From: Escherichia coli
Lineage (GTDB): Bacteria; Pseudomonadota; Gammaproteobacteria; Enterobacterales; Enterobacteriaceae
Strand: one strand, 5' to 3'
Assembly (NCBI RefSeq): GCF_003018235.1
Contig: NZ_CP027437.1
Length of the DNA stretch: 64,000 nt
In this document: positions 1,192 to 8,184 of the stretch, in pieces
How the letters are laid out: each line of letters starts with the position of its first letter
Position numbering within the stretch: the stretch's first letter is position 1
The notes under the pieces: model-generated
The model's database searches: none
Told to the model about the DNA's origin: nothing
Seen by the model: the letters and a program-made list of their open reading frames with translations, nothing else
Position numbers and translations under genes: made by a program

Positions 1192-2055
1192 ATGAAACAA
1201 CACCAATCGGCGGATAATTCTCAGGGCCAGCTTTACATTGTACCGACGCCAATCGGCAATCTGGCGGATATCACCCAGCGTGCGTTGGAGGTATTACAGG
1301 CCGTTGATCTGATTGCCGCCGAGGATACGCGTCACACCGGTTTATTGCTGCAACATTTTGGGATTAATGCTCGGTTGTTTGCGCTGCACGACCATAACGA
1401 ACAACAAAAAGCCGAAACGCTGCTGGCGAAGCTGCAAGAGGGGCAAAACATTGCGCTGGTTTCCGATGCCGGAACGCCGCTAATTAACGATCCTGGCTAC
1501 CATCTGGTGCGTACCTGCCGTGAAGCGGGGATTCGCGTGGTGCCGCTACCCGGGCCGTGTGCTGCTATCACTGCGTTAAGCGCCGCGGGTTTACCATCCG
1601 ATCGTTTTTGTTATGAAGGCTTTTTACCTGCCAAATCAAAAGGCCGCCGTGATGCGCTAAAAGCCATTGAAGCGGAGCCGCGCACGCTGATTTTTTATGA
1701 ATCTACCCACCGTCTGTTAGATAGCCTGGAAGATATCGTTGCGGTATTAGGCGAATCCCGCTACGTGGTTCTGGCGCGTGAGCTAACCAAAACCTGGGAA
1801 ACCATTCACGGCGCGCCCGTTGGCGAGCTGCTGGCGTGGGTAAAAGAAGATGAAAACCGTCGCAAAGGCGAAATGGTGCTGATTGTCGAAGGCCATAAAG
1901 CGCAGGAAGATGACCTGCCTGCTGATGCCCTGCGCACGCTGGCGCTGCTACAGGCAGAACTGCCGCTGAAAAAAGCGGCGGCGCTGGCCGCAGAAATTCA
2001 CGGCGTGAAAAAAAATGCGCTGTATAAGTATGCGCTGGAGCAGCAGGGAGAGTGA
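1192..2055 (+). CDS. rsmI: 16S rRNA 2'-O-ribose C1402 methyltransferase RsmI
   Basis: 287-aa [31 protein letters not shown]..., tetrapyrrole-methylase-like fold typical of RsmI/YraL. Confidence 0.9.
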
Positions 2056-2158
2056 TATCTCTCCGTGGCCCCGTTTGAAGAACCCATGGGCCGCCTGCTA
2101 AACAATCAGTCTTTTTAGTGAATACCGCCGTAAATCCTCGCTCCGTGCGGACTGACCA

Positions 2159-3115
2159 TCAGGGAGCTAGTTGCGTGGTATAGTTGGCAGCGACCCAACG
2201 ATAACCCTTGCTGTTGCTTTTAACATGCCCCAGGCCAGGGAATGAGATATGGGCAGCTGCCACCCAGTAACCACCCTGAGCCGCATGTTTTAATACTCGC
2301 TCACGGGTTTTTACCGCTTGCTGTTGATCCACATCGAAATGTATCGCCACGTGAGGATCCGGCATCTGCACTGCTTTGGCATGAATAATATCACCCCACA
2401 ACACTAGCGTCTGGCCTTCACTCTCCACTGTGTACATCACGCTTCCAGGTGTATGGCCGGCCGTTGAGGTGGCCGTAATGTCTGCAAATACCGTTGCCGG
2501 TGCGATAAAGGTTTTCAGCTGACCTGCGTTGATCACTGGGCGGATGGTCTGCTCCGATTCGACAAAGGTGTGCTTCTGACTCTCTTCTACTTTCGAGGCA
2601 TTCGCCGGATTAAGCCAGAAATCCGCATCTTTCTGCTCAACGAATACCTGGGCGTTAGGGAAAGCTGGTTTGCCCTGACGGGAGATGCCACCAGAGTGGT
2701 CGGCATGAATATGCGTCAGCAGCACGGCATCAATGGTTTCAGCCGGATAGCCAGCAGCTGCCAGGTTCTCAAGCAGTTGGCCTCCATTGTTGCCAAACAG
2801 ATCGCCCGCACCGGCATCAATCAACACGCGTTGCTGACCATTATCAATAACAAATGCATTGATTGAAGTCTCCGTATGGGGTGTCAGAGAATCCTTTGCC
2901 AGTTGCTGGCGCAGTTTATCGGCAGGAATGTGGGTGAGTAATTTATCTAGCGGAATTGTCACCGTGCCGTCGGAGACGGCGGTAATACGTAGTTTGCCCA
3001 ATATCATGCGGTAATAGCCCGGTGCTTGTGTATCAGGAGGGGGCACAGGTATAGGCGTTGCTAACGCATTTACGGAGAGTACCAGTGAGGTCACCAGAGT
3101 CAGCAAAAGTTTCAT
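2159..3115 (-). CDS. Secreted metallo-beta-lactamase-fold hydrolase (unknown substrate)
   Basis: 318-aa ORF with N-terminal signal peptide (MKLLLTLVTSLVLSVNALA) and HxHxDH motif (THIHADHSGG); not part of the K-12 gene order at this position. Confidence 0.75.
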   Translation of the reverse strand: MKLLLTLVTSLVLSVNALATPIPVPPPDTQAPGYYRMILGKLRITAVSDGTVTIPLDKLLTHIPADKLRQQLAKDSLTPHTETSINAFVIDNGQQRVLIDAGAGDLFGNNGGQLLENLAAAGYPAETIDAVLLTHIHADHSGGISRQGKPAFPNAQVFVEQKDADFWLNPANASKVEESQKHTFVESEQTIRPVINAGQLKTFIAPATVFADITATSTAGHTPGSVMYTVESEGQTLVLWGDIIHAKAVQMPDPHVAIHFDVDQQQAVKTRERVLKHAAQGGYWVAAAHISFPGLGHVKSNSKGYRWVAANYTTQLAP

Positions 3116-3196
3116 TCTATCCTCGATAAGTTCTGTTATTACAGTACGGGCACCAGTATCCTTTTGCGGATAACATCATTCAAATTGATTAATATA

Positions 3197-4132
3197 ATGA
3201 ACTCTATCAGAGAAAATGATTTAAACCGGGTCGACCTCAACCTGCTAATCGTGTTCCTGGTGCTACATCGAGAGGGGGAGCGTTTCACGTGCAGCCAACA
3301 AGTTACACTTGGGGCAGCCAGCAGTCAGTGGCGCGCTGGCACGGCTGAGAGAAATGTTTAACGACCCGTTATTTGTGCGCACGGCAAAGGGGATGGCACC
3401 GACACCACGTGCACAAGATCTGGTTACGGCACTACTGCCGGTGATGGATCAAATGCAGCAGGTGATTTTTCAAAGGCCAGTTTTTACCCCAGAACAGGAT
3501 CAGCATACGTTTCGCCTGGGGATGAGTGACTGGGTCGAACGCTGGCTGATGCCTGGAATGATGGCAGATATAGCCCAAATGGCACCCGGGATTCGCTTAC
3601 AAGTCACGGCATCCGATCCTTTCCAGGATGGCGAAAAAGTGCAACAGGATAAGGTGGACGTAGCAATCTCCGTCGTGGAGCAGGTGCCCGCCGGAGTGGA
3701 ACGAGAAGTGATCACTCAAATGGGTTTTTGTACGATGTGGCATCCGCTCCAGTTATCTATCACTTCACCGTTAACCCTTGATGTATATACTGAAACCGAC
3801 CATCTTTTGGTCTCTTATCGCGGTGCAAGCAGTAGCTCTATCGATCTGATTTTGGCTGACTGCGGGCGTGGGAAGTGCGTTACGTCACGCCAAATTTCTC
3901 ATCGTTACCGTTGATGTTGAGACAGATACCGGCTTTAGCGACCGTACCGCAGGGGCTGGCAGAAGGTTGGGTAGCCGATTATGGGTTGCAATTTGCCGAT
4001 GTCCCACTCGAGGTTCCTGCTTTTACGCTCTCTCTACTCTGGAATAAGCGGCGTAATAATGATGAGGCGCTGCGCTGGTTACTAGAGAAATTACGTGCAC
4101 GAATGCAGGGCTGGGAGATGTTTTCAGAATGA
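3197..4132 (+). pseudogene. LysR-family transcriptional regulator disrupted by two frameshifts
   Basis: Three consecutive ORFs (3164-3361, 3309-3914, 3875-4132) in frames 2/0/2 together encode one LysR protein (HTH ...SVSRAANKLHLGQPAVSGALARLREMF, then substrate-binding domain); +1 shift in G5 run at 3274-3278, -1 shift near 3860-3875. Confidence 0.7.
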
Positions 4133-4189
4133 GTTTGAAAACGTAACAATGTGAACAGAAAATAAGGGCTTTCTAAATTAAATAATTCC

Positions 4190-4329
4190 TGTTGAATATC
4201 ATCGTTAGCGACAACATCATCCACGACTACCAGCAGATTTGCACCGATGGTGGATGTTCAGGTCACGCCAACCTGGCCATGAACCAGAAGGTTATCAATA
4301 CGGGTTAAGAGAATATTGAGTAATGTCAT
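4190..4329 (-). pseudogene. agaB: Remnant of PTS EIIB (mannose family, agaB-like) with premature TGA at codon 24
   Basis: ATG at 4327-4329 with AGGAG RBS; MTLLNILLTRIDNLLVHGQVGVT*TSTIGANLLVVVDDVVANDDIQQ; conserved RID..L(I/V)HGQV EIIB motif; in-frame TGA at 4258-4260; similarity ends around 4190, before the convergent LysR pseudogene. Confidence 0.6.
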
Positions 4330-4383
4330 AGTCTTATCTCCTGTTATCCTTGTCGCCTTTCATTTTTCGTTCTTTTGGCGGCA

Positions 4384-4413
4384 ATAAAAAAGGCAGATAA
4401 TTAATTATCTGCC
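4384..4413 (-). terminator. Rho-independent terminator downstream of the C-S lyase gene
   Basis: Perfect palindrome GGCAGATAATTAATTATCTGCC (4392-4413) followed on the minus strand by a U-run (A-run 4384-4391 on plus). Confidence 0.5.
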
Positions 4414-4420
4414 CTGTGGT

Positions 4421-5593
4421 TTATGCGATTTTTTGCATCCTTTCTAATGCTTGTTCAAGCCAGTATCTTTGGGTGCCGAAGTTTAAACGTAAGTAGTTTT
4501 CACCGTTTTGCACATAATGGCTGCCATCTTCAATAATGACTCCAGCGTTGCGGGCAAAATGATTGACCCATTCGGTCGCGGAGCGTCCACTTTCACTGAC
4601 ATCAATCCATGCCAGATATGACGATTCTGGTGTCATCATTTTCCATTCAGGAAAATGCGTCTTGAGGGCATCATTAAGCCAGTGGGAGTTATTGCGTAAA
4701 TAGATATTTAATGCATCCAGCCACGGTCTTGCATGCTGATAAGCCAGTGTAATTCCCCAAACGCCAAAAATATTCGGCGAAGTGATTGAGTTCATTTCCA
4801 GTCTCTGGCGAAAACGCTGCCTCAATCCTTTATTCGGAATGACTGAGTAAGATGTTTTCAGTCCCCCTAGGTTAAAGGCTTTATTTGGTGATGTTAGCAG
4901 GACCAGATTATCGTGATCGGCACATCCGGTAGCCAGGCAACTGACAAACTCGCCTTCCAGCAGGTGCTCGGCATGGACTTCATCCACGACCAGAATGACG
5001 CCGTAACGTTTACATAAGTCCGAAACCTGGCGAATCTCATCTGCCGTCCAGATTCGCCCGGAAGGGTTATGTGGAGAGCAGAAAAACCATAGTTTAGGTT
5101 TATGAAGTTTAAGCTGATCTTCAACCAGCGAAAAATCCAGTTGATAACGGTTATCCGCAATGCTTAACGGATTTGCCAGCACTTTAACCCCCTGGCGCTC
5201 TGTTGCCATGGCAAAAGGGTCATAGACTGGCGTATTCATCATGACGCTATCGCCCGGCTGGCAGAACGCCTGAACCATATAGTGCAGCGTTGAGACAGTA
5301 CCATAGGTTAGGGTGATCCAATTCTGCTCGATACTTACGTGGTGACGATCGCGCTGGAAGCCTATCACGGCCTCATAAAACTCATTAAAGGCGTATGTGT
5401 AGCCGAAAGTTCCGTGCTCAACAATCCGTTGAAAACCGTCAATTACCGCTGGTGGCGAAGTAAAATCCATATCAGCGATCCAAAGAGGGATAAAATCTTC
5501 TGCAACCGCACCGAAGCGTGAGCAGACAAACTGATGATCCCATTTGCGGCACTTGTCGCTTTTACGCTCGATAATTCTATCGAAATCGAACAT
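4421..5593 (-). CDS. PLP-dependent aminotransferase class I/II, MalY/PatB-type C-S lyase (cystathionine beta-lyase-like)
   Basis: 390-aa ORF, AGGAG RBS; N-terminus MFDFDRIIERKSDKCRKWD and overall pattern resemble E. coli MalY; 12 nt downstream of the PTS gene (operon). Confidence 0.85.
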   Translation of the reverse strand: MFDFDRIIERKSDKCRKWDHQFVCSRFGAVAEDFIPLWIADMDFTSPPAVIDGFQRIVEHGTFGYTYAFNEFYEAVIGFQRDRHHVSIEQNWITLTYGTVSTLHYMVQAFCQPGDSVMMNTPVYDPFAMATERQGVKVLANPLSIADNRYQLDFSLVEDQLKLHKPKLWFFCSPHNPSGRIWTADEIRQVSDLCKRYGVILVVDEVHAEHLLEGEFVSCLATGCADHDNLVLLTSPNKAFNLGGLKTSYSVIPNKGLRQRFRQRLEMNSITSPNIFGVWGITLAYQHARPWLDALNIYLRNNSHWLNDALKTHFPEWKMMTPESSYLAWIDVSESGRSATEWVNHFARNAGVIIEDGSHYVQNGENYLRLNFGTQRYWLEQALERMQKIA

Positions 5594-5605
5594 TTTTAAC
5601 TCCTG

Positions 5606-7177
5606 TTAAATTAAAGCTTCAAGGCCCGTTTTCACACTTTGAACTTGCGGGCCAATAATTACCTGCACACTGTGAGCATCCAGTACAACCACCGACAGGG
5701 CACCTGCATTCTTTAACGTGGCTTGATCCACTTTCGACATATCTTTCACCACCAAACGTAAACGAGTAATACAGTTATCCAGTGAATCAATATTTTCTTT
5801 TCCGCCAAGCGCACTCAAAATCACAGCATGATCATATTTAGATTTGCCTCGTGCTTTTGAATTTGCTGCAACAGCCTGTGCTGCATCCTCAGATGAGTCT
5901 TCACGGCCTGGGGTTTTAATATCATGCTTAAGGATGTACCAACGGAAAACAAAGAAATAAATAGCAAACCAAACAATACCCACCGGAAGTATTAAATACC
6001 ATTTAGTAGAAGTACCCTGCATGATACCAAATATTAATAAATCCAAAATCCCGCCATCAGTATTACCGATAGTCACGCCCAGGATTGCCATAACCATTAA
6101 GGCCAGACCGGACATGATAATATGGAATATATACAACGCAGGAGCAATAAAGAGGAATAAAAACTCAATTGGTTCAGAAATGCCAGTAACAACAGATACT
6201 AATACGCCTGAAAGCAGTAAGCCTTTAATTACAGGACGATTTTCTGGTTTGGCTGTACGATAAATTGCGTAAGCCACAGCAGGCAAACCAAACATAAAGG
6301 TTGGCATAAAGCCTTGGGATAAAAACGCAGTAACATGTGGGCTAAAGGGAAGACCGGCTTTTAATTCTGCATAGAAAATATTGAGTGCTCCGGCAACTTC
6401 ATGACCGTCGACAATTTCTGTACCGCCCGCAGGTGTGAAGCGAACCATTGCAAGCAAGATATGATGTAGCCCGAAAGGCTTAAGCAAAAGCACACCAACG
6501 CCATAAAGGAACGGGCCGAATACGCTGGTACTTTGAATAATGTGGCCAATACCAGCAATACCCATTGCAACATAGGTCCAGAGCAAAGGAATGGCCTGGC
6601 CTACTAATGATAATGTTAGCGAAGTGATGATGGGTACGAAGCGGATACCGCTAAAGAAGGCAAAGGCATCATGTAATACAGTATCCTGAAAACGTTCGTG
6701 GAGAAAATAAGTTATTACCCCGGCGATGATGCCACCTAAAACGCCCATCTCTAAGGTTTGAATACCTAATACTACAGATTGACCAACCTGCTTCATCGTG
6801 GCAGCATCGGCAAGTTGATGGGTAACAGTGAGATAATAATTAATACTCATGTTCATTAGCATATAGCCAACAAAACCTGAATATGCGCCTACTGCTTTAT
6901 TTCTCTTTGCCATTCCTAATGGAATTGCAATAGCAAACATAACAGGTAGATAAGTAAATGCAAAGCCACCTACCATTGCAATAAAGCCAAATGTAAGTTG
7001 GGTAAGCTCACCACCTAAAAAGGGGAAGTTATTAATTGTTGAGGGGCTGGTTACTGAACTACCTATACCTAACAGAAGTCCCATAAAAGCGAGTAATGAT
7101 ACTGGGAACATAAATGTTTTCCCTAAACTTTGGAAAAACTCCCAGACCCGTGACTTTATAGACTTTTCCTGTGTCAT
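5606..7177 (-). CDS. PTS glucose/maltose-family EIICB component (MalX-like)
   Basis: 523-aa ORF; membrane EIIC domain followed by EIIB domain with the conserved phospho-cysteine motif NCITRLR; AAGGAG RBS; resembles MalX/PtsG. Confidence 0.85.
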   Translation of the reverse strand: MTQEKSIKSRVWEFFQSLGKTFMFPVSLLAFMGLLLGIGSSVTSPSTINNFPFLGGELTQLTFGFIAMVGGFAFTYLPVMFAIAIPLGMAKRNKAVGAYSGFVGYMLMNMSINYYLTVTHQLADAATMKQVGQSVVLGIQTLEMGVLGGIIAGVITYFLHERFQDTVLHDAFAFFSGIRFVPIITSLTLSLVGQAIPLLWTYVAMGIAGIGHIIQSTSVFGPFLYGVGVLLLKPFGLHHILLAMVRFTPAGGTEIVDGHEVAGALNIFYAELKAGLPFSPHVTAFLSQGFMPTFMFGLPAVAYAIYRTAKPENRPVIKGLLLSGVLVSVVTGISEPIEFLFLFIAPALYIFHIIMSGLALMVMAILGVTIGNTDGGILDLLIFGIMQGTSTKWYLILPVGIVWFAIYFFVFRWYILKHDIKTPGREDSSEDAAQAVAANSKARGKSKYDHAVILSALGGKENIDSLDNCITRLRLVVKDMSKVDQATLKNAGALSVVVLDAHSVQVIIGPQVQSVKTGLEALI

Positions 7178-7314
7178 TTAATAGACTCCTTGATTTTTAT
7201 AAGCATAGTTTCAAGGTCATGAAAAAGTAATCATGACCTTTTATATTTGTGAGGTAAGTTGTTTTTTATTGTCTGAATACAGCTGCTAAGAAACTGTTAT
7301 TCACATATTTTTAA

Positions 7315-8184
<870 letters not shown>

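Follow-up and report, generated by a model that had tools for sequence, protein, structure and literature searches.

An intact gene for a probable exported DHCH/MPH-type lactonase beside its inactivated divergent LysR regulator in Escherichia coli

The enzyme considered here has its closest known relatives in the dihydrocoumarin hydrolases (DHCH), which are lactonases, and in methyl parathion hydrolase (MPH), a pesticide-degrading organophosphate hydrolase that evolved from them; the reconstructed AncDHCH1 (PDB 5hif, 6c2c) is the DHCH ancestor of MPH. Tokuriki and co-workers found that five changes (l72R, a 193S insertion, h258L, i271T and f273L) are both necessary and sufficient to convert a DHCH into MPH, which is periplasmic (PMC8222346). 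Extant and ancestral DHCHs act on dihydrocoumarin with a kcat/KM of >=1e6 M-1 s-1 and on organophosphates with values <1e2 (bioRxiv 10.1101/504811). OPHC2 (4le6), a Pseudomonas enzyme isolated for its weak phosphotriesterase activity, likewise has dihydrocoumarin as its best substrate, and its AHL and alkyl-lactone activity is undetectable (PMC3817169). The AHL lactonases AidC, LrsL, MomL and AidB share the fold, and at least LrsL and MomL are secreted (PMC9441902). In LrsL a histidine three residues past the bridging aspartate is close enough to the position of the lactone oxygen for a hydrogen bond, and the equivalent histidine of MomL is needed for binding and catalysis (PMC9441902).

The window analysed here, a 64,000-nucleotide stretch of E. 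coli chromosome, holds an intact gene whose product goes by the label 'MBL fold metallo-hydrolase' (Table 1). Our analysis replaces this label by an assignment that can be tested, namely a DHCH-type lactonase of the periplasm under a dedicated LysR regulator. With moderate confidence, we read the locus as encoding an exported DHCH/MPH-type lactonase and a divergent LysR regulator, the latter inactivated here. The ATG start of the gene is preceded by GAGGA. Inside the gene lies an antisense 98-aa open reading frame (2570-2866, + strand) with homologues in 58 of 80 loci; it resembles a shadow frame of a conserved gene and is not to be read as evidence for a second gene.

Table 1. Coordinates of the lactonase-like gene, its divergent partner and neighbouring genes in the window
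Feature	Position	Strand	Basis
lpoA	up to ~1130	-	
rsmI	1192-2055	+	
MBL-fold di-metal hydrolase CDS, DHCH/MPH lactonase clade (predicted)	2159..3115	-	intact ORF, 318 aa + stop
HxHxDH metal-binding motif (H135, H137, D139, H140)	2696..2713	-	residue mapping onto MPH numbering
Predicted Sec signal peptide coding region, residues 1-19 MKLLLTLVTSLVLSVNALA	3059..3115	-	sequence inspection and hydrophobicity
Divergent control region between MBL and LysR start codons, 81 bp	3116..3196	.	head-to-head arrangement
Conserved box ATCATTCAAATTGAT (ATCAATTTGAATGAT in MBL direction)	3175..3189	.	best-conserved stretch of five-genus intergenic alignment
LysR-family regulator pseudogene	3197..4132	+	alignment with intact O145 and TB06052 genes
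PatB/MalY-type C-S lyase	4421-5593	-	364 bits, above cut-off
MalX-type PTS EIIBC	5606-7177	-	733 bits, above cut-off
kbaY	7315-8172	-	

Membership of the MBL superfamily is indicated by a family HMM match, by the HxHxDH motif together with distal His/Asp/His ligands, and by an alpha-beta/beta-alpha sandwich fold. The first-pass annotation had proposed an MBL-fold enzyme with an HxHxDH zinc motif and had suggested a Pfam Lactamase_B search as a check; this search gave a significant match to PF00753 (E = 3.3e-18, residues 82-273), and with all seven metal ligands kept the proposal stands. In phmmer searches of the PDB, full-length homology was found to crystallised members of the DHCH/MPH clade, with AncDHCH1/Anc1-MPH (5hif, 6c2c) at E = 2e-87 over residues 23-313, MPH of Pseudomonas sp. 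WBC-3 (1p9e) at 3.9e-78, OPHC2 (4le6) and PoOPH (4o98) both at about 1e-72 and AbOPH (4xuk) at 1e-60, while the AHL lactonases LrsL (3e-46) and AidC (6.5e-34) were more distant. Pairwise identity amounts to 47.9% with AncDHCH1, 44.3% with MPH, which shares the di-metal site and the fold, and 38-41% with the Pseudomonas enzymes PoOPH and OPHC2, which have the same fold but are more distant. No orthology to a characterised housekeeping enzyme emerged from these comparisons.

An AF2 model built on a 31-sequence alignment reached a mean pLDDT of 83 and a pTM of 0.85, with pLDDT only 64-68 across residues 241-260, the segment that includes D242, H245, I258 and F260. Foldseek searches with this model returned 5hif and 1p9e at the top with a probability of 1.00, and TM scores were 0.84-0.91 to MPH/AncDHCH1 (0.84-0.89 for AncDHCH1). 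The structure prediction with active-site comparison that had been proposed earlier thus points to DHCH/MPH structures, the ligands being mapped by sequence. The E. coli protein groups with those of Enterobacterales and Vibrio in a neighbour-joining tree of the 80 homologues, while AncDHCH1 and MPH sit in a separate, Burkholderiales-rich clade. The enterobacterial/Vibrio proteins, known here from sequence, are about 45-48% identical to that clade, and at this distance the substrate class can be assigned at the family level only.

The stretch LLTHIHADHSGG in the open reading frame gives the metal-binding residues H135, H137, D139 and H140 (H135-x-H137-x-D139-H140), and the remaining ligands H221, D242 and H289 lie outside this motif in the same coding sequence. 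By alignment, H135, H137, D139, H140, H221, D242 and H289 correspond to H147, H149, D151, H152, H234, D255 and H302 of MPH. All seven MPH ligands are thus kept, as they are in 79-80 of 80 species-representative homologues and, identically, in AncDHCH1, and the metal site is predicted to be intact. Scored at MPH positions 72, 193, 258, 271 and 273, the protein has the ancestral lactonase state at five of five specificity positions (L59, no insertion, H245, I258, F260), the same residues as AncDHCH1 (L, no insertion, H, I, F). Within the family this is the default, found in 76-80 of the 80 homologues. H245 is also the histidine three residues past the bridging aspartate, the position at which AHL lactonases carry theirs. 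The PDB title of the PoOPH structure matched by Foldseek names an H250I/I263W mutant, and Luo et al. 2014 reportedly turned the native lactonase PoOPH into a phosphotriesterase through H250I/I263W; H250 and I263 of PoOPH are probably the counterparts of H245 and I258 here, by homology to the 258/271 pair of MPH.

The N-terminus of the protein, MKLLLTLVTSLVLSVNALA followed by TP, is organised like a Sec signal peptide: the n-region is basic, a hydrophobic core of 15 residues follows (mean Kyte-Doolittle value 2.05 vs -0.19 for the remaining protein), and A-L-A stands at positions -3 to -1 of a cleavage site predicted after Ala19 and before T20. Reading the N-terminal sequence for a Cys lipobox and for a twin-arginine motif found neither. 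The n/h/c layout is common to all 28 aligned enterobacterial homologues, and in the AF2 model residues 2-17 form a lone helix of low confidence that is followed by a disordered, Pro-rich linker. The earlier suggestion of a signal peptide and an exported enzyme therefore holds at the sequence level, and the protein would be exported via Sec, as a counterpart to the periplasmic location of MPH.

E. coli O145 and TB06052 have an intact LysR gene (314 aa) that stands head-to-head with the enzyme gene, 81 bp apart. The same head-to-head pair is annotated in Enterobacter kobei, Winslowiella, Serratia proteamaculans, S. rubidaea, Pantoea agglomerans, Atlantibacter hermannii and Cedecea neteri, that is, in seven of seven annotated loci outside E. 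coli (six genera), with spacers of about 48-95 bp and with all other neighbours differing. Of 80 species-representative loci, 61 have a LysR homologue in head-to-head position, on the opposite strand at extrapolated distances of about 52-173 bp. All loci with an enzyme identity of >=55% have the pair except two, one in Cupriavidus and one cut short by the end of its contig. Regulator identity declines from 83% to about 31% together with enzyme identity, a pattern to be expected if the two are inherited together. When open reading frames were clustered across the 80 loci, no neighbour other than LysR recurred, the next clusters (SDRs and lineage-specific synteny) being limited to <=20 loci. In this respect the locus differs from those of the DHCH/MPH clade, since the LysR pairing is mostly missing at the closest loci of that clade (below about 50% identity to the query). 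Taken together, a true regulator-target pair is well supported by gene order and sequence, in agreement with the first-pass annotation, which had noted the divergent LysR pseudogene as a typical pair; the copy in the window is frameshifted.

The two start codons are separated by a spacer in which one box stands out (Table 1). The majority of its alignment columns do not vary between E. coli, Enterobacter, Winslowiella and Serratia, in contrast to the diverging remainder of the spacer, and the box holds a T-N11-A element with an ATCA/TGAT dyad, which makes it a candidate site for LysR binding. A scan of positions 1950-3400 for promoters and terminators gave one promoter-like site, against 1.6 expected, and thus nothing above chance; this site overlaps the LysR start codon and is therefore uninformative. 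Family models were also considered as a route to the inducer of the regulator. The intact LysR orthologue scored best on the BsrA model, but its 196 bits fall short of the cut-off (480) and the match is uninformative; the regulator is uncharacterised.

Compared with the intact genes of O145 and TB06052, the LysR gene of the window carries two lesions. One is an additional G (five instead of four) at 3274-3278 and the other a 4-bp deletion of AAAA between 3869 and 3870. Both recur in four independent assemblies whose enzyme is identical (L096, L097, L099 and L100), while a further assembly with the identical enzyme (L098) has an intact 312-aa LysR and in another (L101) a different lesion leaves the gene in two pieces of 239 and 72 aa. 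An exact 40-mer spanning the LysR frameshift had no match among species-representative genomes. The repeated occurrence of the lesions, the intact copy and the distinct lesion show that the decay is real, recent and recurrent and not a sequencing artefact, and they suggest that the regulator has been lost more than once. The enzyme gene differs from its O145 copy by 14 nucleotides and 5 amino acids, none of them catalytic, and its dN/dS of 0.18 indicates purifying selection, although the loss of LysR is so recent that this value says nothing on selection after the loss.

Several other functions have to be weighed against an exported lactonase of the DHCH type. The one that we take most seriously, while still regarding it as unlikely, is a quorum-quenching AHL lactonase that would degrade the AHL signals of neighbours in the periplasm. 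The best NCBIfam model for the protein is in fact the AidB AHL-lactonase family (NF047979; 202.6 bits, E = 7e-60), LrsL and AidC are detectable relatives at TM scores of 0.82-0.92, the HxHxDH~H~D~H site and the histidine after the bridging aspartate are shared, and LrsL and MomL are secreted, as the protein studied here is predicted to be. The curated AidB cut-off of 360, however, is missed by a wide margin, and AncDHCH1 behaves alike with 210 bits, which means that the match reflects clade-wide shared ancestry and not membership. Identity is only 33% to LrsL and 25% to AidC vs 48% to DHCH, scores on the AiiA (31.5 bits, cut-off 375), AttM (27.3, 390) and YtnP (67.6, 425) models are all far below the NCBIfam cut-offs, and the nearer relatives of the protein prefer aryl lactones, with AHL hydrolysis by OPHC2 of the nearer clade below detection (PMC3817169). 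An organophosphate (methyl parathion) hydrolase, to which the 44% identity and common fold with MPH might point, appears highly improbable: R72, the S193 insertion, L258, T271 and L273, the residues needed for organophosphate activity, are all missing, and we rejected the assignment on these grounds. Enzymes of the ancestral state, which nearly all of the 80 homologues share, have organophosphate kcat/KM values <1e2 (bioRxiv 10.1101/504811). EMW16696.1 (E. coli 2845650), a GenBank record that belongs to the protein's 90% cluster, bears the name 'methyl parathion hydrolase', and with none of the five MPH residues present we consider this name an over-annotation. That the protein is a subclass B3-like metallo-beta-lactamase adding to beta-lactam resistance is a notion to which we give almost no weight. 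Predicted export, an HxHxDH motif of the B3 kind and weak matches to B3 models speak for it, but the protein reaches 48 of the 240 bits required by the B3 model (NF033105) and 42 of the 100 required for the class B core domain, so that a beta-lactamase was rejected on NCBIfam cut-offs. B3 enzymes also appear far down the PDB list (AIM-1, E = 3e-6), and in none of the 63 genomes does the NCBI pipeline call this protein a beta-lactamase. MBL nucleases of defence and anti-defence (Apyc1, Avs1a and LmuA) were rejected since their matches cover little beyond the metal motif; the Apyc1 match spans only residues 114-145 around HxHxDH (E = 3.5e-4), and PADLOC defence-nuclease matches reach 27-29 bits over partial regions. 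The first-pass annotation had held that function could not be read from the fold, and this is right as far as the fold goes. The sequence does narrow it: membership of the DHCH/MPH clade and the lactonase-state residues make beta-lactamase, sulfatase, nuclease and organophosphate-hydrolase readings unlikely.

A different kind of alternative is that the gene is a silent relic heading for decay in this strain, its regulator already gone. We regard this as rather improbable. LysR-family regulators commonly activate their divergent target, two frameshifts in LysR are common to a sublineage with an independent lesion in another strain, and no convincing sigma-70 promoter was found for the enzyme gene, all of which would fit silence. 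On the other side, the open reading frame is full length with its catalytic residues and signal peptide intact, the low dN/dS stands as given above, and the protein is 100% identical to that of the strain with an intact LysR (L098), an identity that shows only how recent the loss of LysR is. The relic reading concerns expression and is compatible with a lactonase.

The most likely function of the protein, as judged from its sequence, is that of a periplasmic lactonase. The mature enzyme would consist of about residues 20-318 after cleavage of the signal peptide, with two divalent ions bound by H135, H137, D139, H140, H221 and H289 and bridged by D242. A metal-bridged hydroxide would attack the lactone carbonyl, H245 would contact the ring oxygen, and the ring would be opened to a hydroxy-acid. 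Our best guess for the preferred substrates, by analogy with the characterised relatives, is aryl or delta-lactones of the dihydrocoumarin type, although dihydrocoumarin may be a convenient test substrate and not the native one, even for DHCHs. LysR and the enzyme would form a self-contained two-gene module, presumably induced by the lactone or its product. The regulator of a divergent pair is usually an activator, and if this applies here, the enzyme is probably non-inducible in this strain and its gene expressed at a basal level.

The enzyme gene is found in 63 of 5,426 complete E. coli genomes (about 1%), always as a single chromosomal copy next to rsmI, at 97.4-98.9% identity, and its carriers include the O145:H28 EHEC lineage. 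K-12 does not have the gene and carries agaBCDI-yraHIJK at the same position, in keeping with the earlier remark that the gene is not part of the K-12 order. Homologues with 60-86% identity occur in Erwinia, Yersinia rohdei, Winslowiella, Pantoea, Kosakonia, Phytobacter, Serratia, Rahnella, Cedecea, Pectobacterium and Vibrio. Many of these hosts are plant-associated, which is compatible with a plant lactone as substrate; dihydrocoumarin-type lactones are plant- or gut-derived and would fit the plant-associated Enterobacterales that share the gene. Full-text literature searches, which were not aimed at this clade or its accessions, returned no paper on an enterobacterial member. The kind of enzyme is known, and its enterobacterial member is an uncharacterised but ordinary accessory gene, mechanistically nothing unexpected and with no indication of antibiotic resistance.

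Rare in E. coli and widespread in plant-associated Enterobacterales, the module may mark adaptation to a lactone-rich plant or gut niche, and the enterobacterial clade offers natural relatives, not exposed to pesticides, for the DHCH-to-MPH evolutionary system. A bolder idea, which we hold to be a long shot, is that the LysR-lactonase pair acts as a portable sense-and-destroy module for a diffusible lactone, be it an AHL or a coumarin-type compound of plant or gut origin. If it were true, carriers including EHEC O145:H28 would be altered in their perception of, or survival in, lactone-rich habitats like the rumen and plant surfaces, for example by quenching the AHLs sensed by SdiA, and recurrent loss of the regulator would amount to adaptive tuning.

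The interval between kbaY and rsmI (2056-8172 of the window) is a hot spot of variation in E. coli, where at least four arrangements occur, namely agaBCDI-yraHIJK (K-12), agaBCDI only (GMF065), agaBCDI-LysR-MBL (AH04) and malX/patB-agaB'-LysR-MBL (the window and O145:H28). In the window, 135 bp from the 5' end of agaB survive (4183-4317, - strand) and are 95.6% identical to agaB of GMF065. The remainder of agaB and all of agaC, agaD and agaI are missing, from which the lineage is predicted to be without the galactosamine PTS, while agaVWEF are kept. The MalX-type EIIBC and PatB/MalY lyase genes (4421-7177) lie between kbaY and the agaB remnant, with GC contents of 41.7% and 46.5% vs 50.7% for the window, and they were apparently acquired separately from the LysR-MBL pair, because AH04 has the pair without malX/patB. 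For the core region with aga, gar and tdc (8200-32000), identity to each of the complete RefSeq E. coli genomes (5,426) does not exceed 98.9%, so that the lineage of this strain is not closely represented among complete genomes. The exact enzyme protein is nonetheless recorded from 38 contigs of E. coli.
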